Positions 3,757-60,898 of a DNA stretch of 64,000 bases are shown in pieces. The notes under the pieces are model-generated. The model was given only the letters and a program-made list of their open reading frames with translations, was not told where the DNA came from and did no database searches. The stretch lies in the sequence record NC_028780.1. One strand, written 5' to 3'. The DNA comes from Escherichia phage slur07. Position 1 is the first letter of the stretch. Each line of letters starts with the position of its first letter. The translations under genes were made by a program, and so were the position numbers.

Positions 3757-3786
3757 GTTTACTTCCTCCAAGGACTTTGATACTAT
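3757..3786 (+). promoter_or_regulatory. T4-type early promoter
   Basis: GTTTAC 3757-3762, 18-nt spacer, TACTAT 3781-3786. Confidence 0.5.
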
Positions 3787-3813
3787 ACATTCATCAACTA
3801 CTTGGAGGAAATT

Positions 3814-4230
3814 ATGACTCGTATCAATTTAACACTTGTTTCTGAACTGACCGACCAACATCTTATGGCTGAGTATCGTGAATTGCCGCGTGTTTTTGGT
3901 ATAGTTCGTAAACATGCGGCAAATGGTAAGCGGGTTAAAGATTTTAAAATATCTTCCGAGTTTATTTTAGGCTCTGGTCATGTTACGTTCTTTTACGATA
4001 AGTTAGAATTTTTGCGAAAGCGTCAATCAGACATTATAACGGAATGCTTAAAACGTGGGTTTAGTATAAAAGATACTGAAGTTCCTGACATCAGCGATAT
4101 TCCAGCAGAATGGAAAAATGATTATAATCCATGCAAATCAGCTATTAAATTGAGTCAACAACGACTCGATGAAAAAATTTTAATGAAGCCACACTGGTAC
4201 AAGTATTACGGCAAAAATATTTACATTTAA
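3814..4230 (+). CDS. denV: endonuclease V (pyrimidine-dimer DNA glycosylase)
   Basis: 138 aa starting [12 protein letters not shown]...; matches T4 DenV length and sequence as recalled. Confidence 0.9.
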
Positions 4231-6861: not shown

Positions 6862-6891
6862 GTTTACTTTTCCTCTTGACTGTGGTATAAT
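6862..6891 (+). promoter_or_regulatory. T4-type early promoter
   Basis: GTTTAC 6862-6867, 18-nt spacer, TATAAT 6886-6891 with TGTGG upstream. Confidence 0.6.
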
Positions 6892-11211: not shown

Positions 11212-11236
11212 AGTCTCCTTCGGGAGACTTTTTTCA
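11212..11236 (+). terminator. rho-independent terminator-like hairpin
   Basis: AGTCTCC-TTCG-GGAGACT followed by TTTTTT. Confidence 0.55.
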
Positions 11237-11244
11237 TTTTACCG

Positions 11245-11275
11245 GTTTACTTTCCGTTTGAGCTGTGGTACTATA
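11245..11275 (+). promoter_or_regulatory. T4-type early promoter
   Basis: GTTTAC 11245-11250, TACTAT near 11270. Confidence 0.55.
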
Positions 11276-11302
11276 CAACTATCGGATAAAGAGGAGAACA
11301 TC

Positions 11303-11491
11303 ATGAAAATTGAAGCACTTAATCAAGAAGGAAATATCTACGTCATCATTAATGGTGATTTTTTCGTCGACATGGATGAAGTTACTAGTGAAGAACTTGT
11401 AGAATTTCTTAAGAAACGTTATAATATGTGTGATGAAGTTGCAACTCACATGGCGTGTGCAATATTCTCTCTTTCATATGTGGTGGAATAA
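11303..11491 (+). CDS. hypothetical small protein
   Basis: 62 aa, GAGGAG RBS. Confidence 0.45.
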
Positions 11492-12056: not shown

Positions 12057-12086
12057 GTTTACAAGTTGGCAAGGTTATGGTATAGT
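12057..12086 (+). promoter_or_regulatory. T4-type early promoter
   Basis: GTTTAC 12057-12062, TATAGT 12081-12086. Confidence 0.5.
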
Positions 12087-12218
12087 AATCTTGTCAACTG
12101 CCAAGGAGAAGAGAATGAAAGTTTTGTTTGTTGTGTATGTGGTGATTCAATATAATTACCCAATGTTTACTTATAATCTGGTGAACAACATTATTGATAT
12201 GATTCAGAGGAGTATGTA

Positions 12219-14765: not shown

Positions 14766-14767
14766 TA

Positions 14768-14792
14768 GGGAGCCTTCGGGCTCCCTTTTTTA
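14768..14792 (+). terminator. rho-independent terminator
   Basis: GGGAGCC-TTCG-GGCTCCC followed by TTTTTT. Confidence 0.6.
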
Positions 14793-14815
14793 TTTCAAAA
14801 ATTTTTCACAAAACT

Positions 14816-14845
14816 GTTTACAAGCATAAAGCTTTATGGTACTAT
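14816..14845 (+). promoter_or_regulatory. T4-type early promoter with A/T UP element
   Basis: GTTTAC 14816-14821, TACTAT 14840-14845; upstream AAAAATTTTTCACAAAACT. Confidence 0.6.
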
Positions 14846-14889
14846 ACAACTATCAACTGATACGGATTTGGAGAATAAAATGAAAACTG
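14837..14889 (+). repeat. promoter-leader-start cassette, near-identical copy at 42058-42110
   Basis: 53 nt identical except 2 positions, runs from -10 through RBS into first 3 codons. Confidence 0.8.
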
Positions 14890-15848
14890 TAACTATCAAT
14901 AAGGGTATCTACTTCGGTAAAGAAATCTCTGGAACTTTTGAGCTCTTAGGTGAATGGTTCCCAGATAATGCTCCGGTAGATGCGCAAGGAGATGGTAAAG
15001 TTTTTGTTGAAATTGACGGTAAACGTCGCGGTGTTTGGGTTTACAAATCAGACATTTCATATGATGGTGTAAAAGTTGAAGAAGTTAAAGAATCGTATGA
15101 AGATATGAAAACCCGCATTAATAAAAGATTTAATGTTATGGGAATGATGACGAATGGTATTATTAATGGAAATATTCGTTCATTAATTATCTCTGGTGCG
15201 GCGGGTATTGGTAAAACGTATTCTTTAGATAAAGCTTTAAATAAAGCAAATGATATTGGATACATTGAATATAAAAGCATTAACGGTAAAATCTCCGGTA
15301 TCGGTCTTTATGAACAGCTTTGGAATAATCGTGAAGAGAATTCTGTCCTTTTGATTGATGATGTGGATGTTTTCTCTGATATGGACATTCTTAATCTTCT
15401 GAAAGCTGCTCTGGACACTGGAGAGACCCGTAAAGTCTGCTGGAGCACCGCATCTTCTTACTTAGAAGAAAAAGGCATTGAGCGTGAGTTTGAATTTAAA
15501 GGAACGATTGTTTTTATCACAAACGTTGACATTGACCGCGAATTAGACCGTGGTACTAAACTTGCTCCACATTTACAAGCATTAGTGTCCCGCTCAGTTT
15601 ATTTGGATTTGGGTGTTCACACTAATGAAGAAATTATGGTCAGGGTTGAAGATGTTATTCTTTCAACTGACATGATGCAAAAGCGCGGTCTTTCTGATGA
15701 AGAAACTTATAAAGCATTATCATGGATGAAAGTCAATGTTAATCGTTTACGCAATGTTTCACTGCGTACTGCTCTTTATCTTGCTGACTTTATTATGACC
15801 GACAAAAATGGTTGGGAAGAAATTGCTGAGGTTACTCTTCTGAAATAA
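14880..15848 (+). CDS. AAA+/P-loop ATPase, function unknown
   Basis: Walker A GAAGIGKT, Walker B LLIDDVD; 322 aa. Confidence 0.65.
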   Translation: MKTVTINKGIYFGKEISGTFELLGEWFPDNAPVDAQGDGKVFVEIDGKRRGVWVYKSDISYDGVKVEEVKESYEDMKTRINKRFNVMGMMTNGIINGNIRSLIISGAAGIGKTYSLDKALNKANDIGYIEYKSINGKISGIGLYEQLWNNREENSVLLIDDVDVFSDMDILNLLKAALDTGETRKVCWSTASSYLEEKGIEREFEFKGTIVFITNVDIDRELDRGTKLAPHLQALVSRSVYLDLGVHTNEEIMVRVEDVILSTDMMQKRGLSDEETYKALSWMKVNVNRLRNVSLRTALYLADFIMTDKNGWEEIAEVTLLK

Positions 15849-15946
15849 TTCATAAGAGGCCTTCTATGACAAAAAGGCAGTTCAGAAATAGATTATATGG
15901 ACTGCCATCAAAAAGATGACTAGAATTAAACTGGTAAATGGAGGTA

Positions 15947-16252
15947 ATGATGTTATACTCAAAGGCTCGTGAAATTTATGAAACTAAAATTAAAGAAGCA
16001 GTATTTCAGTTCGCAACAACGATGCGATGGACAAATGATTGGGAGTATTCAAAAAATCATAAGAAGTCCTTGGTGACAAGAAAGGCTCATATGTTAGTGT
16101 TAATAGACCGTGAGCAGATTAAAGCCCGAGAAGCCCTCCAGAATCATAAAAAGGCTGCCTTTGAATGGTTTATGGATAACACTGCTCCTGAGACTAAGAA
16201 AGCAGTGAGCGCGTGGTTCAGTGGAAAAAATTGTGAAAGAAGTTTCTTTTAG
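15947..16252 (+). CDS. hypothetical protein
   Basis: about 100 aa; GGAGG RBS; start could be ATG 15950. Confidence 0.5.
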   Translation: MMLYSKAREIYETKIKEAVFQFATTMRWTNDWEYSKNHKKSLVTRKAHMLVLIDREQIKAREALQNHKKAAFEWFMDNTAPETKKAVSAWFSGKNCERSFF

Positions 16253-16254
16253 TT

Positions 16255-16298
16255 GTTTACAAGACCGTTCCTCTGTGGTACTATACAACTATCAACTA
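16255..16298 (+). repeat. early-promoter core cassette, 43/44 identical to 42037-42080
   Basis: GTTTACAAGAC(C/T)GTTCCTCTGTGGTACTATACAACTATCAACTA; includes -35 and -10. Confidence 0.8.
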
Positions 16299-16312
16299 CG
16301 GAGGAACAGAAA

Positions 16313-16840
16313 ATGAATGCTAAAGATATTTTCAACTTGGTAAACTACAATGATGGTAAATTTAAATCTGAAGCTCAAAGCAAGTTCTTTAATGACATCT
16401 CAATTGGAGGTGAAATCACTGTTGATGGAGGACAAATTTACAAATCACGTTGGAATTGGATCGTTATTATTGATGAGATTGGTATTGTAGAAATTTACAA
16501 AAATACGAATAAAAATCGTACATTACACTGGTCTCGTGATACTAACGAACAGTACAAAAAGGATAAAGCATCTAAATTATCTCGTGTAACTCAAGAAGAT
16601 ATTGAGTTCATCAAGAAAGATATTTTGATGTATGATAACTTAATTGCTGAAGAGCAAGCTGTTATTGATAAATTTGATGAGATTAAAGCTTCTCGTGAAA
16701 TTCCTGATTTTATGAAAGAATCAGTAAATGAACGATACACTCTCATTTCAGAGCGTATTGAAACTTACAAAAAGCAAAGAGCTGAACGCCAGAATACTCT
16801 TCGGAAGTTTGAAGAACGGTTAAAGACGGTACTCGCATAA
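16313..16840 (+). CDS. hypothetical protein
   Basis: 176 aa from ATG 16313 (GGAGGAA RBS). Confidence 0.55.
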   Translation: MNAKDIFNLVNYNDGKFKSEAQSKFFNDISIGGEITVDGGQIYKSRWNWIVIIDEIGIVEIYKNTNKNRTLHWSRDTNEQYKKDKASKLSRVTQEDIEFIKKDILMYDNLIAEEQAVIDKFDEIKASREIPDFMKESVNERYTLISERIETYKKQRAERQNTLRKFEERLKTVLA

Positions 16841-41932: not shown

Positions 41933-41955
41933 AGGGACCTCCGGGTCCCTTTTTC
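41933..41955 (+). terminator. rho-independent terminator
   Basis: AGGGACC-TCCG-GGTCCCT followed by TTTTT. Confidence 0.55.
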
Positions 41956-42036
41956 ATACAAGTAATATAAATCTATACTTATGAAAAACAGATGATTCTG
42001 GACCTTTAGAATTCCCTAAAAAATTTTCACAAAACT

Positions 42037-42066
42037 GTTTACAAGACTGTTCCTCTGTGGTACTAT
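42037..42066 (+). promoter_or_regulatory. T4-type early promoter (cassette shared with 14816 and 16255)
   Basis: GTTTAC 42037-42042, TACTAT 42061-42066. Confidence 0.6.
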
Positions 42067-42110
42067 ACAACTATCAACTAATACGGATTTGGAGAATAAA
42101 ATGAAAATTG
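42058..42110 (+). repeat. promoter-leader-start cassette, copy of 14837-14889
   Basis: 51/53 identical. Confidence 0.8.
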
Positions 42111-42337
42111 TTTATGGTTGCTTAGCAGTGTGTTTAGTTGCATTAGCCGCTGTTCCATTTATTGATATTGAAAATGATACTCAGAATGTGATTGAATCTA
42201 ATACTGTTATTCACATGAATGGTAAAGTATCAACAAAAATTGATGATAATCTTCATATGAATACTAATGGAACGCTGGGTGTTCAATTAGGTAATACCTG
42301 TGTAAGCACTACTGGAGTAATTACTACTTGTATTTGA
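42101..42337 (+). CDS. small secreted/membrane protein
   Basis: 78 aa with signal peptide. Confidence 0.5.
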   Translation: MKIVYGCLAVCLVALAAVPFIDIENDTQNVIESNTVIHMNGKVSTKIDDNLHMNTNGTLGVQLGNTCVSTTGVITTCI

Positions 42338-42347
42338 GGAAATTATT

Positions 42348-42728
42348 ATGAAAATCGCTATTTTGATTATTGCATTAGGTCTTACTGGCTGTGTAGCTCA
42401 AGGACCAGTAGTAAATCAGTCTGATGCAGGAAAAATTGTAAACTGTTCAAGCAAGTTTTATAATCCTAATGTCAAGTGTTATAAAGAAGCTCCAAAACAG
42501 ACAGTAGAACAAATGCAGGCGAATTTTGACGAAGCTATTCGTCCAGATGAATCTGCTCAAGCATATCGTAATTCGGATGTAATTACACGCGAAGAAAAAA
42601 TTGAAAACTACTGCGCCGAAATTTGGGCTAATTGGGCTAATAATTACCAATGGCGTACTGGTAAAAATGCTCCGATGGAGTATGTAGTGAATTCTTATAA
42701 TTCATGCGTAAAAAATTTGACTAAGTGA
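42348..42728 (+). CDS. lipoprotein
   Basis: signal peptide with lipobox LTGC. Confidence 0.55.
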   Translation: MKIAILIIALGLTGCVAQGPVVNQSDAGKIVNCSSKFYNPNVKCYKEAPKQTVEQMQANFDEAIRPDESAQAYRNSDVITREEKIENYCAEIWANWANNYQWRTGKNAPMEYVVNSYNSCVKNLTK

Positions 42729-46325: not shown

Positions 46326-47753
46326 GTGGTAGAAATTATTCTTTCTCATCTCATATTTGATCAAGCTTATTTTTCAAAAGTTTGGCCATATATGGATTCA
46401 GAATATTTTGAAAGTGGTCCAGCTAAAAATACATTCAAATTAATTAAATCTCATGTTAATGAGTACCATAGCGTTCCATCTATTAATGCGTTAAATGTTG
46501 CATTAGAAAATAGTTCATTTACTGAAACAGAATATTCTGGTGTAAAAACACTTATTTCAAAACTGGCTGATTCTCCGGAAGACCACAGCTGGTTAGTAAA
46601 AGAAACAGAAAAATATGTTCAGCAAAGGGCGATGTTTAATGCTACGTCTAAAATAATCGAAATTCAAACTAATGCTGAGCTTCCTCCGGAAAAACGAAAT
46701 AAGAAAATGCCGGACGTTGGTGCTATTCCTGACATTATGCGACAAGCATTATCAATTTCATTTGATAGTTACGTTGGTCATGATTGGATGGATGACTACG
46801 AAGCACGTTGGCTATCTTATATGAATAAAGCTCGTAAGGTTCCATTTAAACTCAGAATTCTAAACAAAATTACTAAAGGCGGAGCTGAGACTGGAACACT
46901 GAACGTTTTAATGGCTGGAGTTAACGTTGGTAAGTCATTAGGATTGTGTTCATTGGCAGCAGATTATTTGCAGCTCGGACATAATGTTCTTTACATTTCC
47001 ATGGAAATGGCAGAAGAAGTCTGTGCTAAGCGTATTGATGCTAATATGCTTGATGTTTCTCTTGATGATATTGATGATGGGCATATTTCTTACGCTGAAT
47101 ATAAAGGAAAAATGGAAAAATGGCGTGAGAAATCTACCCTTGGTCGTTTAATCGTTAAGCAATATCCTACTGGTGGAGCAGACGCTAATACATTTCGATC
47201 ACTTTTAAATGAATTAAAGCTCAAGAAGAATTTTGTTCCAACAATCATTATTGTCGACTATCTAGGTATTTGTAAATCTTGCCGCATCAGAGTTTACTCA
47301 GAAAATAGTTACACAACTGTTAAAGCTATCGCAGAGGAATTGCGTGCTCTGGCTGTTGAAACCGAAACTGTTCTTTGGACTGCAGCACAGGTCGGTAAAC
47401 AAGCTTGGGACTCTTCCGATGTTAACATGAGCGATATTGCAGAATCTGCTGGTCTTCCAGCAACAGCTGATTTTATGCTTGCGGTCATTGAAACCGAGGA
47501 GCTAGCAGCTGCTGAACAACAACTCATTAAGCAAATCAAATCACGATATGGCGATAAGAATAAGTGGAATAAGTTTTTAATGGGTGTTCAAAAGGGAAAT
47601 CAGAAATGGGTAGAAATTGAACAAGATTCTACTCCAACTGAAGTGAGTGAAGTAGCAGGTTCACAACAGATTCAGGCTGAACAGAATCGCTATCAAAGAA
47701 ACGAATCAGCTCGAGCTCAGTTAGATGCTTTGGCAAATGAATTAAAATTTTAG
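46326..47753 (+). CDS. 41: replicative DNA helicase
   Basis: 475 aa, GTG start; Walker A GVNVGKS; matches T4 gp41. Confidence 0.95.
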   Translation: MVEIILSHLIFDQAYFSKVWPYMDSEYFESGPAKNTFKLIKSHVNEYHSVPSINALNVALENSSFTETEYSGVKTLISKLADSPEDHSWLVKETEKYVQQRAMFNATSKIIEIQTNAELPPEKRNKKMPDVGAIPDIMRQALSISFDSYVGHDWMDDYEARWLSYMNKARKVPFKLRILNKITKGGAETGTLNVLMAGVNVGKSLGLCSLAADYLQLGHNVLYISMEMAEEVCAKRIDANMLDVSLDDIDDGHISYAEYKGKMEKWREKSTLGRLIVKQYPTGGADANTFRSLLNELKLKKNFVPTIIIVDYLGICKSCRIRVYSENSYTTVKAIAEELRALAVETETVLWTAAQVGKQAWDSSDVNMSDIAESAGLPATADFMLAVIETEELAAAEQQLIKQIKSRYGDKNKWNKFLMGVQKGNQKWVEIEQDSTPTEVSEVAGSQQIQAEQNRYQRNESARAQLDALANELKF

Positions 47754-47782
47754 TTTACAAGCTGACAAGACTATGGTATAGT
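47753..47782 (+). promoter_or_regulatory. T4-type early promoter
   Basis: GTTTAC 47753-47758 overlapping gene 41 stop, TATAGT 47777-47782. Confidence 0.55.
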
Positions 47783-47811
47783 AGTCTTGTTGGTTAAATG
47801 AGGAGATTGTT

Positions 47812-50370: not shown

Positions 50371-50383
50371 ATGTCCTCCTTAT

Positions 50384-50407
50384 TGCTTTATATATTTATT
50401 GTATAAT
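50384..50407 (+). promoter_or_regulatory. MotA-box middle promoter
   Basis: TGCTTTA 50384-50390, 11-nt spacer, TATAAT 50402-50407. Confidence 0.5.
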
Positions 50408-51635: not shown

Positions 51636-51662
51636 AAGGACTCCTTCGGGAGTCCTTTTTTC
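51636..51662 (+). terminator. rho-independent terminator
   Basis: AAGGACTCC-TTCG-GGAGTCCTT followed by TTTTTT. Confidence 0.6.
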
Positions 51663-51671
51663 ATTTAAACG

Positions 51672-51701
51672 GTTTACTTTCCAAAATGAGTATGGTATAA
51701 T
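51672..51701 (+). promoter_or_regulatory. T4-type early promoter
   Basis: GTTTAC 51672-51677, TATAAT 51696-51701. Confidence 0.6.
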
Positions 51702-53761: not shown

Positions 53762-53791
53762 GTTTACTTTCCTTTCTAACGATGATATGAT
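53762..53791 (+). promoter_or_regulatory. T4-type early promoter
   Basis: GTTTAC 53762-53767, TATGAT 53786-53791. Confidence 0.5.
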
Positions 53792-53817
53792 AGCTTCTGA
53801 AGTATACGGAGGCTATC

Positions 53818-54441
53818 ATGATTATTAATCTTGCAGATGTTGAACAGTTATCTATAAAAGCTGAAAGCGTTGATTTTCAATATGATATGTATAAAAAGGT
53901 CTGTGAAAAATTTACTGACTTTGAACAATCCGTTCTTTGGCAATGTATGGAAGCCAAAAAGAATGAAGCTCTTCATAGGCAGTTGAATAAAATCATTAAA
54001 AAGCATTTAACTAAATCACCTTATCAGTTATATCGTGGTATATCAAAATCAACAGAAGAACTCATTAAAGATTTACAAGTTGGAGAAGTGTTTTCAACGA
54101 ACAGAGTAGATTCATTTACTACTAGTTTGCACACAGCATGTGGTTTTTCTTATGTTGAGTATTTCACTGAAATAATATTTCGCTTAAAAACTGATAAAGC
54201 TTTTAATTATTCTGACCATATCAGCGATATTATACTTTCTTCTCCTAATACTGAGTTTAAGTACACGTATGAAGATACTGATGGGCTAGATTCAGAGCGT
54301 ACTGATAACTTAATGATGATTGTGCGTGAACAAGAATGGATGATTCCAATTGGAAAGTATAGAATAACTTCTATTTCAAAAGAAAAATTACACAATTCAT
54401 TTGGAACATTTAAAGTTTATGATATTGAGGTAGTTGAATGA
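53818..54441 (+). CDS. modB: ADP-ribosyltransferase (ModB-like)
   Basis: 207 aa; R-S-E motifs (YRGIS, SxTTS, EQEWMIP); paralogue of next ORF. Confidence 0.7.
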   Translation: MIINLADVEQLSIKAESVDFQYDMYKKVCEKFTDFEQSVLWQCMEAKKNEALHRQLNKIIKKHLTKSPYQLYRGISKSTEELIKDLQVGEVFSTNRVDSFTTSLHTACGFSYVEYFTEIIFRLKTDKAFNYSDHISDIILSSPNTEFKYTYEDTDGLDSERTDNLMMIVREQEWMIPIGKYRITSISKEKLHNSFGTFKVYDIEVVE

Positions 54442-55161: not shown

Positions 55162-55908
55162 ATGAAACTGTCTAATAATCAAATTCGTAAAATTAAACGT
55201 CGTCTAGAGCATACCCAGGCATCTGCAAAAAGACGTTCTAAAGATTTTAACTTAGACTTCAATTACATTAAGAACATTTTAGATCAGAAAGTTTGTGCTT
55301 ACTCAGGAGAACCTTTTGATAATCGTGTTGAAGGAGAGAAATTATCATTAGAACGTTTTGATAATAACGTTGGATACATTAAAGGGAATGTTATTGCAGT
55401 AAAGAAAAAGTATAATACATTTCGTTCTGATTATACTTTAGAAGAGTTGATTGAAAAGCGTGATTTATTTGCTTTGCGAATTGGTCGTTCATCTGCGAAA
55501 AAAGTTCATAAACTAAATTTAGATGAAAAGAAATGGGCTAAAATCAAAAAGACTTATAATCAAATTAAAGCTATACAGAAAAAACGTGAAAACCGAATTG
55601 AACACATTTCTCAGCTTTCTAAATCAAAACAGACCTCTGACATTAAGCTAAGGATTATAGCACTTAAAGCACGTATTGATGGTTCTCGCATAGCAGAAGG
55701 CGCTGAAGTTGTTAAATTGAACGTTCTTCTTAAAGGCTCGGATTGGAAAATTGTGAAAAAGCTGTCAGAAGCAGAAATGCAATATGATATGTGTGATAAA
55801 ATTATTCAAGGTGTAGAGCGGTATCAAAATTTGTCTTTTATTGATAAACTTAAACTGAAAAGAGGATACCCGCTAAATTGTTCAATTTTTAAACTTATCC
55901 GAGGATAA
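55162..55908 (+). CDS. hypothetical protein (position and size of T4 srd)
   Basis: 248 aa, basic; between modA and dda region. Confidence 0.5.
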   Translation: MKLSNNQIRKIKRRLEHTQASAKRRSKDFNLDFNYIKNILDQKVCAYSGEPFDNRVEGEKLSLERFDNNVGYIKGNVIAVKKKYNTFRSDYTLEELIEKRDLFALRIGRSSAKKVHKLNLDEKKWAKIKKTYNQIKAIQKKRENRIEHISQLSKSKQTSDIKLRIIALKARIDGSRIAEGAEVVKLNVLLKGSDWKIVKKLSEAEMQYDMCDKIIQGVERYQNLSFIDKLKLKRGYPLNCSIFKLIRG

Positions 55909-59969: not shown

Positions 59970-59998
59970 TTTACAAACTCTTGGGACCAGAGTATAAT
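59969..59998 (+). promoter_or_regulatory. T4-type early promoter
   Basis: GTTTAC 59969-59974, TATAAT 59993-59998. Confidence 0.55.
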
Positions 59999-60042
59999 GG
60001 TCCCGCGGAGTATAAAATCTTTTTAACAAGTGAGAAATAACT

Positions 60043-60531: not shown

Positions 60532-60555
60532 AGTTTAAAATTTTTTCATAAAACT

Positions 60556-60585
60556 ATATACATCAGTAGTTGATTATGGTACTAT
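60556..60585 (+). promoter_or_regulatory. early promoter-like element with degenerate -35
   Basis: TACTAT 60580-60585 inside 11-bp inverted repeat; upstream TTTTTTCATAAAACT. Confidence 0.35.
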
Positions 60586-60628
60586 ATCAATATCAACTAC
60601 TGATACAGAAAACAACTTGGAGAATAAA

Positions 60629-60898
60629 ATGGAAAACTTAATTATCATCGAGCAATCTTTCAACGATTATGGTATGGCTTACGGTTATCGTGCGATAATG
60701 GAAGATTCTCGTGGATGTGTTATCGATATTGCTGAATGTAAAGATTTACTGCAGCTTTTGAAGATTGTTCGCAAAAATTGGGATTGTGAAAACATTAAAG
60801 CTCGTGTTGTAACGGAAGAAGAAACTGTTTTTCATGATGTAAAATTTGCCAAAGGTGCTGCTACTCTTCTGAAACGCATCGCTCCACTGTTCAATTAA
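60629..60898 (+). CDS. hypothetical small protein
   Basis: 89 aa from ATG 60629; leader TTGGAGAATAAAATG as at 14880 and 42101. Confidence 0.45.
   Translation: MENLIIIEQSFNDYGMAYGYRAIMEDSRGCVIDIAECKDLLQLLKIVRKNWDCENIKARVVTEEETVFHDVKFAKGAATLLKRIAPLFN

Follow-up and report, generated by a model that had tools for sequence, protein, structure and literature searches.

The repeats analysed here belong to a family that has already been described for T4-type phages, in which copies have swapped segments and the cores mark exchange points for small genes. Morons (Hendrix et al. 2000) reportedly enter genomes by illegitimate recombination, in many cases with reversed orientation. For the PeSL (promoter-early stem-loop) cassettes, the promoter consensus in PST/T4 is TTTACW-N17-TAYWAT (PMC4122927). 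The earlier note on this DNA had read its repeats as PeSL-type promoter-leader cassettes. Our analyses support this reading, as the anatomy fits and ORFs are exchanged next to the cassettes in related genomes.

Early promoters of a T4-like phage

The window (the whole stretch of 64,000 nucleotides that was analysed) is from a Tequatrovirus with 92-98% identity to T4 and a gene order collinear with it. The strand shown is the direction of early transcription. The repeats are real and form a dispersed family of strong early promoters with short mRNA leaders (Table 1). Three main sites are the early promoters of nrdC.10 (-35 at 14817) and nrdC.8 (16256) and the one after gene 43 (42038; the start codon of the ORF behind it is at 42101). 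They align base for base with the promoters upstream of T4 nrdC.10, nrdC.8 and imm.1, which lie at the conserved positions of 55.36, 53.92 and 27.06 kb. Both by position and by sequence, promoters of the window are orthologous to T4 sites at 55363, 53922, 27059, 58759 and 6609. The post-gene-43 site is annotated as 'predicted early promoter' in the GenBank record of fPS-2, and we infer promoter activity and start sites for the cassettes from their sequence.

Table 1 Promoter cassettes and neighbouring features in the window
Feature	Coordinates	Strand	Details
denV early promoter	3758..3816	+	Weaker member; 4 core mismatches; abuts replaced internal-protein locus
Early promoter TTTACT-N17-TATAAT	6863..6891	+	Consensus-only likeness; outside core subfamily
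Terminator and mobD.5 early promoter	11212..11305	+	Complete terminator-promoter composite; terminator 11212-11229; -35 at 11246; -10 at 11269; 3 core mismatches; ATG 11303
Intrinsic terminator hairpin after nrdC.11	14767..14786	+	AGGGAGCC-UUCG-GGCUCCCU, then T-run; terminator scan
nrdC.10 promoter, A/T-rich UP element and -35	14797..14822	+	UP element AAAAATTTTTCACAAAACTG; -35 TTTACA (14817-14822)
nrdC.10 promoter, spacer type a	14823..14836	+	AGCATAAAGCTTTA
nrdC.10 promoter, shared core	14837..14857	+	TGGTACTATACAACTATCAAC; TGn extended -10; -10 TACTAT (14840-14845); predicted start-site region
nrdC.10 leader type A	14858..14889	+	GGAG Shine-Dalgarno 14870-14873; ATG 14880; first three codons
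nrdC.10	14880..15848	+	AAA-ATPase-like protein of unknown function; mapped to T4; phrog_1250
nrdC.9	15950..16252	+	Weak A/U hairpin 16234-16251 within 3' end
nrdC.8 early promoter cassette	16255..16316	+	-35 GTTTACA 16255-16261; spacer type b AGACCGTTCCTCTG 16262-16275; core 16276-16296; leader type B with GGAGG; ATG 16314
gene 43 terminator hairpin	41933..41950	+	88 nt upstream of the -35 at 42038
Chimeric early promoter cassette after gene 43	42018..42111	+	Core 42058-42078; leader type A
ORF-A	42101..42337	+	78 aa; signal-peptide-like N-terminus; phrog_4189
imm.1 with own ribosome-binding site	42338..42728	+	Ribosome-binding site GAGGAAATTATT
Diverged member after motB	60537..60640	+	UP element; -35 TATACA 60557-60562; -10 TACTAT 60580-60585; 3 core mismatches; leader type C (type A with 6-9 nt indel); ATG 60629
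89-aa ORF, intact in the window	60629..60898	+	phrog_3720

Similarity beyond the promoter consensus

Two identities had been claimed for these sites, and recounting returned exactly the same values: 51/53 between 14837-14889 and 42058-42110, and 43/44 between 16255-16298 and 42037-42080. A self-comparison of the window recovered the same family as 94-nt copies at 14797-14890, 16236-16329 and 42018-42111. The 42018 and 14797 copies are 88% identical over the 94 nt, with 25/26 matches between 14797-14822 and 42018-42043 and 30/32 between the type A leaders (14858-14889 and 42079-42110). The 21-nt core TGGTACTATACAACTATCAAC occurs exactly at 14837, 16276 and 42058 and with three mismatches in two further copies, all on the + strand, and was found in 0 of 100 shuffles. 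The 28-nt leader has two copies where none is expected.

Functional constraint on the UP element, -35, TGn, -10 and Shine-Dalgarno accounts for part of this similarity. All copies have GGAG or GGAGG 6-8 nt before the ATG. The promoters at 14817, 16256 and 42038 read TTTACA-N17-TACTAT and that at 11246 TTTACT-N17-TACTAT, whereas the -35 of the 60557 copy is TATACA. Pure functional convergence would extend this to the whole repeat: the copies would have been selected towards an optimal 'über' early promoter and an optimal translation-initiation leader and would not have recombined. The functional elements are indeed retained in all copies, and T4 early promoters carry 'additional regions of consensus' besides UP, -35, TGn and -10 (PMC2988021). 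We aligned the 17 + strand early promoters of the window on their -10 and compared the parts outside the consensus. Leader identity averaged 9.4 (sd 3.6) over all promoter pairs against 29/30 for the nrdC.10 and 42038 copies, so the repeats exceed the promoter consensus and run into the leader, as the earlier note held. The spacers are also alike. Between -35 and -10 no sequence requirement is known, yet the spacers of the nrdC.8 and 42038 copies match at 13/14 positions, unlike the other 15 promoters (mean of all pairs 4.65, sd 1.8). The core is absent from 12 of the 17 strong early promoters, the other five matching it with at most three mismatches, and identity ends sharply at codon 3. With the mosaic structure described below, these observations leave pure convergence with very little credence.

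Claims about the smaller sites and the hairpins held in part. Among the shorter modules that had been listed, those at 11263 and 60575 are family members with three core mismatches each, whereas 6877 shares consensus positions only (CTGTGGTA...CTATCA). Each site had been placed downstream of a terminator hairpin, which is true for about half of them but not for the rest. Strong UUCG-loop terminators at 14767-14786 and 11212-11229 directly precede the promoters at 14817 and 11246, respectively. The former terminator is part of the nrdC.10 cassette and folds with -17.7 kcal/mol (z = -3.67). The 16256 promoter is preceded by no more than a weak A/U hairpin with the AGNA-loop-TCNT pattern (16234-16251), and terminator scan and RNA folding detected no hairpin upstream of the 60557 and 6863 promoters.

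A structured RNA in the shared leader was considered and rejected, as the folding of four leaders was no more stable than that of shuffled sequences (z -0.5 to +0.65). The type A leader of nrdC.10 is unstructured, and the whole window has no Rfam match at gathering thresholds. The copies are not remnants of gene duplication either: the downstream proteins fall into different PHROG families, and the shared sequence does not continue past the third codon.

The family is larger than the window suggests. T4 has six exact core copies (e.8, nrdC.10, nrdC.8, imm.1, the ndd.6 region and motA) and five near ones (denV, mobD.5, after motB, ndd.4 and frd.3), which gives at least 11 dispersed copies per genome. 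The T4 frd.3 and nrdC.10 promoters differ by one mismatch in ~60 nt, from the T-run to ACTATC, and diverge beyond. The type a spacer of the nrdC.10 promoter is identical to that of T4 frd.3 and is stable in eight genomes. The T6 copy after gene 43 matches the T4 e.8 copy at 59/60 positions from UP element through core, and the T4 e.8 and imm.1 cassettes can be aligned over ~97 columns with indels. In 63 copies drawn from T4, T2, T6, IMG/VR and metagenomes, spacer types occur in free combination with leader types.

A mosaic promoter after gene 43

The cassette at 42018-42111 is a genuine mosaic, resembling nrdC.10 in its UP element and -35, nrdC.8 in its spacer (42044-42057) and nrdC.10 again in its leader. 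The ratio of nrdC.10-like to nrdC.8-like informative sites is 8:1 for the UP element, 1:8 for the spacer and 17:1 for the leader, and this switching from nrdC.10 to nrdC.8 and back is significant (Fisher P = 1.3e-5). The sites thus change parent at the module borders, which speaks against convergence. The gene 43-imm.1 promoter also has eight spacer alleles in ~15 genomes, compared with one or two at nrdC.10, nrdC.8 and motA, and its spacer patches match the spacers of other promoter copies. We rejected general, ongoing concerted evolution of leader A, as orthologues are more alike than paralogues within a genome, except at the gene 43 locus.

Module exchange among related genomes

The gene 43-imm.1 interval exists in three states. 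In ~320 records it holds ORF-A behind leader A, in 31 it holds ORF-B behind leader B, and T4, T6 and fPS-2 have neither ORF. ORF-B, which is unrelated to ORF-A, replaces it in T2-type phages. The leader type travels with the ORF, and the boundary between the two alleles sits in the shared core. Dhakavirus carries its homologue of ORF-B downstream of rI.-1, where a terminator, a promoter and a similar leader precede it.

Two different, independent ORF insertions were found at the nrdC.10 promoter of relatives. KAW1E185 has a 263-bp insert, and metagenome contig OBRH01000009 has a 460-bp two-ORF insert with flanking 21-nt leader repeats and a second promoter. The KAW1E185 module recurs at the e.x locus of Mosigvirus JK36 with ~96% identity over ~270 nt. 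Its flanks there are unrelated, and both junctions lie within promoter cores.

Overall, ORF insertion, deletion or replacement next to a cassette was seen at 42038, 14817 and 60557; at the last of these, the T4 version of the 60629 ORF has an internal deletion from codon 3 onward. The comparison of related genomes that the earlier note had proposed thus revealed ORF exchange at two of the three main cassettes (gene 43 and nrdC.10), but not at nrdC.8, where the cassette sequence is stable in 11 genomes and no ORF variation was seen among the related genomes compared. The term 'mobile cassettes' needs a similar qualification: leader-plus-ORF segments move, whereas the promoters are fixed and orthologous to T4 early promoters. 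The nrdC.10, nrdC.8 and motA copies are almost invariant across genomes, so that exchange outside the gene 43-imm.1 locus is either infrequent or ancient.

These data allow the promoters to be seen as passengers. They would be old orthologous elements marking intergenic sites that are permissive, without driving exchange themselves, while genes are gained and lost through microhomology-mediated deletion at starts and stops and through allelic recombination between co-infecting phages. Several junctions are of this kind. The T4 type has lost ORF-A with a clean junction at ATGAAAAT, the 8-nt repeat at the imm.1 start (42348-42355), and the T4 deletion after motB, which begins at codon 3, shows microhomology of the AAAAT type. 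Further indels of small ORFs (8941/9309, 38897/39143, 57537/57769 and 61730/62103) have their junctions at start or stop codons, where 4-8 nt of microhomology are shared and no promoter is close by. Among 20 structural differences that separate the window from T4, three touch a cassette, which is not a significant enrichment over the 1.08 of a random-position null (P = 0.09). Recombination between 14837 and 16276 would excise nrdC.10-nrdC.9; a chimeric query of nrdC.11, fused promoter and nrdC.8 found this product in none of 626 phage records at the required coverage of at least 80%. The passenger explanation does not predict that the shared module of KAW1E185 and JK36 should end inside promoter cores on both sides, at two unrelated loci in two genera. 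The core boundary between the ORF-A and ORF-B alleles and the borrowed spacer patches at the gene 43 locus also stand against it, and we consider it unlikely.

Probable recombination between promoter copies

We favour an explanation in which sigma-70 early promoters are fused to short unstructured leaders and the copies recombine, swapping leader-plus-ORF modules (probability roughly 0.78). The hairpin, where present, would stop transcription from upstream. The UP element, -35 GTTTACA, TGn and -10 TACTAT would recruit host RNA polymerase, with a predicted start ~7 nt past the -10 and a leader of ~27-37 nt whose GGAG Shine-Dalgarno would drive translation of the next early gene. The blocks of near-identity, from 21 to ~60-100 nt, may serve as substrates for the phage's own homologous recombination, with copies in the same genome or alleles of co-infecting phages as partners. 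A point against it is that the perfect homology tracts, of 21-60 nt, are close to the lower limit for efficient T4 recombination, according to the passage of PMC2839356 that cites Singer et al. 1982. Short-patch exchange would leave copies mosaic for UP element, spacer, core and leader, and a crossover in the core or at the RBS/ATGAAA end would swap or insert a leader-plus-ORF module. We infer this pathway, which should not require a dedicated recombinase.

A site-specific system would need one, the repeats being its att-like or integron-like sites. The T6 RefSeq record labels a 40-nt core-plus-leader repeat 'attL', and an integron analogy was drawn by Arbiol et al. (PMC2839356). This label appears to be an artefact produced by automated prophage detection, and no integrase or recombinase is known for T4-type phages (PMC2839356). 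Junctions also vary by event, occurring after CTATCAA, after ATCAACTA, at ATGAAAAT and at GGAGAATAAAATGAAAACT, i.e., at no fewer than four positions. Such variation fits homology or microhomology and not a fixed cleavage site, making a site-specific system extremely improbable.

A further idea, which we regard as rather doubtful, is that the core ACAACTATCAAC close to the start site and the A/C-type leader, both specific to the subfamily, are more than relics of recombination and are kept alike as the signal of a co-regulated immediate-early subset, maintained by short-patch ectopic conversion. The subset would comprise motA, imm.1, nrdC.10, e.8 and the ndd-region ORFs. Alt/ModA-modified polymerase might respond to the signal, or it could serve in RegB/S1 cleavage at GGAG or in 5'-end chemistry, and the gene 43-imm.1 promoter would be a conversion hotspot.

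Comparison with known systems

The promoter-leader cassettes resemble PeSLs (Arbiol et al. 2010, PMC2839356; Comeau et al. 2014, PMC4122927) in being ~100 bp composites of an A/T-rich region, early promoter, Shine-Dalgarno and start codon. The main copies match the PST/T4 consensus, from which the 60557 copy deviates in its -35. Several copies follow a terminator stem-loop and lie next to variable small ORFs, and ORF modules are bounded by two such promoters in KAW1E185, OBRH01000009 and JK36. Unlike PeSLs, only about half of the copies examined here have a real stem-loop. The copies are positionally fixed orthologues with no excision product among the 626 records, and their association with indels between the window and T4 is weak (3/20).

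The cassettes consist of the same elements as the T4 early promoters, Pe, with their 'über' UP/-35/TGn/-10 (Hinton 2010, PMC2988021; Nolan et al. 2006, PMC1524935), including -35 GTTTAC, TGn and the A/T-rich upstream element. The subfamily differs in adding a common core through ~+13 and the spacer and leader types, beyond the general Pe consensus. These promoters are not among the entries of PMC6024815. As far as Repoila et al. 1994 is discussed in PMC2839356, the T-even internal-protein (IP) loci similarly keep early promoter, RBS and first codons while the gene body is swapped. Their conserved first codons encode a capsid-targeting peptide according to that discussion, whereas the cassettes share only ATGAAA(A). 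As with morons and Botstein linker sequences, small accessory genes have their own promoter and terminator, and conserved linkers act as crossover points. Unlike in morons, the modules all share one orientation, and their junctions fall within homologous promoter sequence.

Little of this is new in kind, as it joins T4's own early promoters to the published idea that promoter-terminator cassettes are linkers for small-gene shuffling. The cassette model has its limits: most indels lie away from cassettes, some cassettes are invariant and the predicted excision product is absent. In practice, such repeats can be mis-annotated as att sites, for example in the T6 RefSeq record. What the present locus adds to the known systems are clean base-level examples within the T4 genus, namely a mosaic promoter with three parents and three alleles at the gene 43-imm.1 junction, together with one ORF module common to Tequatrovirus and Mosigvirus that has both junctions in promoter cores.

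Organization of the early promoter cassettes

The window carries repeated early promoter cassettes that are orthologous to T4 promoters, that include a mosaic copy, and at which modules have been exchanged with junctions in the promoter core. Read 5' to 3', a cassette has an A/T-rich upstream element (AAAAATTTTTCACAAAAC), preceded in some copies by a terminator, then the -35 GTTTACA and a variable spacer of 14 nt, followed by a core, a leader and the ATG. The core contains TGn and the -10 TACTAT and extends ~12 nt beyond; the leader is ~17-32 nt long (22 nt in type A, one of three sequence classes, A to C) and carries GGAG. The leader RNAs showed no structure on folding and matched no Rfam family.

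With a repeat finder, comparison of the window with itself grouped the copies at 14797, 16236 and 42018 into a single 94-nt family. The identities given in an earlier note were exact on recount: 51/53 between 14837-14889 and 42058-42110, and 43/44 between 16255-16298 and 42037-42080. As that note argued, the similarity extends past the promoter consensus. We aligned 17 convincing early promoters (+ strand, GTTTAC-type -35, 17-nt spacing) on the -10. Identity in the leader region is 29/30 between the nrdC.10 and gene 43 copies (mean of all promoter pairs 9.4, sd 3.6), and identity in the spacer is 13/14 between the nrdC.8 and gene 43 copies (all-pair mean 4.65, sd 1.8). In the window, three sites match the 21-nt core TGGTACTATACAACTATCAAC exactly and two match it with three mismatches, all on the + strand; 100 shuffles contained no copy. 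On these figures the repeats are real and exceed the promoter consensus. The site at 6877 was overstated as a shorter module, having only consensus positions in common. The claim that every copy lies downstream of a terminator hairpin was overstated too: it holds for the promoters with -35 elements at 14817 (nrdC.10) and 11246 (mobD.5), the only ones directly preceded by real terminators. The gene 43 terminator is 88 nt upstream of the -35 at 42038, the 16256 promoter has just a weak A/U hairpin within nrdC.9, and a hairpin scan upstream of the 60557 and 6863 promoters found no terminator.

Genes at the main cassette copies of the window
Feature	Position	Strand	Remark
nrdC.11, 3' end			within 14768-16298
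nrdC.10	14880-15848	+	
nrdC.9	15950-16252	+	
nrdC.8, start	ATG at 16314	+	
Distant partner copy	42018-42111		just 3' of gene 43 (DNA polymerase gene)

Relationship to T4 and other genomes

A 3-kb query around the finding matched 710 phage records, mostly Tequatrovirus, with up to 98.9% identity. BLAST showed T4 (NC_000866) from 69,981 down to 3,911 to be collinear with the window at 92-98% identity, the T4 minus strand corresponding to the window + strand and to the direction of early transcription. In T4, nrdC.10, nrdC.8 and imm.1 have the same cassettes upstream, almost base for base; judged by sequence, the cassettes are T4's own early promoters. The GenBank record of fPS-2 labels the post-gene-43 site a predicted early promoter. 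In the T6 RefSeq record NC_054907 (gene 43-imm.1 region, 910-949 of the extract), TGGTACTATACAACTATCAACTGATACGGATTTGGAGAAT is annotated 'attL'; it is promoter core plus leader A, the repeat studied here. The label is most likely the product of an automated prophage tool; to our knowledge, T6 is virulent and has no att sites.

Exact core copies in T4 are located upstream of e.8, nrdC.10, nrdC.8, imm.1, the ndd.6 region and motA, and copies with up to four mismatches at denV, mobD.5, after motB, ndd.4 and frd.3. Starting at the terminator T-run and as far as ACTATC, the T4 frd.3 and nrdC.10 promoters differ by one mismatch in ~60 nt; beyond that they diverge. The T4 e.8 and imm.1 cassettes align over ~97 columns, from which leader types A and C are one leader differing by a 6-9 nt indel. 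Exact-core searches of IMG/VR and metagenome contigs yielded 63 usable copies. Among these, leader A accompanies nrdC.10, ORF-A/imm.1 and, at the ndd.6 locus, three different ORFs; leader B accompanies nrdC.8, ndd.4 and T2 ORF-B; and spacer and leader types are found recombined with each other. It is unlikely that a subfamily-specific core and leader mark a co-regulated immediate-early gene set maintained by gene conversion.

In the T4 ndd.6 region (167065-166990), the sequence behind leader A is ATGAAAATCGCT, which equals the first 12 nt of imm.1, and the frame stops after eight codons (MKIAEIEL). Full ORFs stand here in other genomes (MKFKFYYAK..., MFTTAELK...). This sequence suggests that four codons of coding sequence can travel with cassette exchange.

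Mosaic structure of the copy behind gene 43

The 42018 copy was scored at sites where the nrdC.10 and nrdC.8 copies of the window differ. Its upstream element is nrdC.10-like at 8 sites and nrdC.8-like at 1, its spacer 1 and 8, and its leader 17 and 1, respectively (spacer vs rest, P = 1.3e-5, Fisher's exact test, somewhat optimistic as segment borders were set at functional boundaries after inspection). Across genomes, the post-gene-43 spacer has eight alleles, patchworks of e.8-type TCCCTGTTCTTCCA and nrdC.8-type AGACTGTTCCTCTG; the nrdC.10, nrdC.8 and motA spacers are nearly invariant.

Exchange of genes at the cassettes

Comparison of related genomes, proposed in the earlier note as a check, revealed ORF exchange at both the gene 43-imm.1 and the nrdC.11/nrdC.10 cassettes. 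At the former, ORF-A follows leader A in ~320 of ~507 matching records, as in the window, and an unrelated 83-aa ORF-B replaces it in 31 (T2, RB27, RB51 and others). From GTTTAC to ATGAA inclusive, the ORF-B and nrdC.8 cassettes are 62/63 identical (counted manually from the sequences). T4, T6 and fPS-2 have neither ORF, and imm.1 is joined straight to leader A at the 8-nt repeat ATGAAAAT; in this T4-type state, ORF-A appears to have been lost by ordinary deletion at a short repeat. In Dhakavirus, the homologue of ORF-B has 54% amino-acid identity and is at a different locus, after rI.-1, where a terminator and a promoter precede it together with a similar leader.

At the nrdC.11/nrdC.10 junction, phage KAW1E185 has a 263-bp insert with a 66-aa ORF. 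The insert starts just past the -10 region in the nrdC.10 promoter, and a second promoter, its -10 within a palindrome, closes it. A different, 460-bp insert with two ORFs occurs there in the metagenome contig OBRH01000009, with 21-nt repeats of GGAGAATAAAATGAAAACT on both flanks and a second promoter at its end. In the Mosigvirus JK36, ~270 nt match the KAW1E185 module at ~96% identity. This copy is located upstream of nudE and e, in the e.x region, between unrelated flanks and with each of its two junctions within a promoter core. Behind the 60557 copy (after motB), an 89-aa ORF is intact in the window and deleted from codon 3 onward in T4.

A second promoter pair in the window, 12057-12094 and 47753-47790 (33/38 identical), is upstream of the mobD.2 and dmd positions, with the -10 TATAGT inside the palindrome ACAAGAC-TATGGTATAGTA-GTCTTGT; the promoter at 59970-60005 has GGGACC-AGAGTATAAT-GGTCCC. 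The arrangement resembles the PeSL (promoter-early stem-loop) subclass whose stem-loop overlaps the -10, a design that also closes the inserted modules of KAW1E185, OBRH01000009 and JK36. Closely similar terminator-plus-promoter composites, CCTTCGGGAG(A/T)C(C)TTTTTTCATTT(T/A)A(C/A)CGGTTTACTTTCC, are at 11212-11262, upstream of mobD.5, and 51636-51690, upstream of the mrh.2 position (after soc). At 53786-53820, a 14-bp stem that starts at the -10 of the 53763 early promoter takes the Shine-Dalgarno sequence and ATG of the following gene into its pairing (TATGATAGCTTCTGAAGTATACGGAGGCTATCATG). Mapping to T4 places this gene at the modB position, and the stem may block translation of a toxic ADP-ribosyltransferase.

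Limits of cassette-associated exchange

For the deletion expected from recombination of 14837 with 16276, 0 of 626 records covered at least 80% of a representative query. The window differs structurally from T4 at 20 places, of which only 3 touch a cassette (random-position null 1.08, P = 0.09). Several other small-ORF indels have start/stop-codon junctions with 4-8 nt microhomology and no nearby promoter, and several further differences are due to homing-endonuclease genes. Promoter cores are thus one exchange route among several.

Compared with T4, the window has four promoter-free insertions of small ORFs (8941/9309, 38897/39143, 57537/57769, 61730/62103), 230-370 bp in size, with junctions exactly at start/stop codons and 4-6 nt microhomology (TATGAG, TAAG, TTATG). 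The dam methyltransferase gene is cleanly missing at 50381-50402 (T4 17725-16825), as are mobB, mobC and the I-TevII intron of nrdD, and other sequence replaces the mobD, segF and b-gt/segA regions of T4. An internal-protein (IP) capsid-targeting motif opens three ORFs (3474, 4240, 48978; one start is MKTYKEFIKED). The first two are IP genes flanking denV, in place of T4 ipIII/ipII; the third is the orthologue of T4 61.1 (MKTFKEFIKED in T4), outside the classical IP loci.

Mechanism and comparison with PeSL cassettes

From T4 biology, host sigma-70 polymerase would transcribe the cassettes immediately after infection and the hairpins would insulate transcription units (PMC2988021, PMC2839356). 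Short-patch conversion, and likewise the insertion or replacement of leader-plus-ORF modules, would be the work of the phage's own recombination system acting on the homologies of 21-100 nt (PMC2988021, PMC2839356). All copies have the same orientation and essential genes lie between most pairs, so reciprocal crossovers of distant copies would be lethal, which fits the observation of only patches and local insertions.

The description of PeSLs for the PST/T4 pair fits these elements, with the stem-loop criterion and the lack of an excision product as weak points. The elements are T4 early promoters, and the PeSL-type interpretation of the earlier note is supported; the phenomenon is already published, and the published model predicts the arrangement of the KAW1E185/JK36 module.
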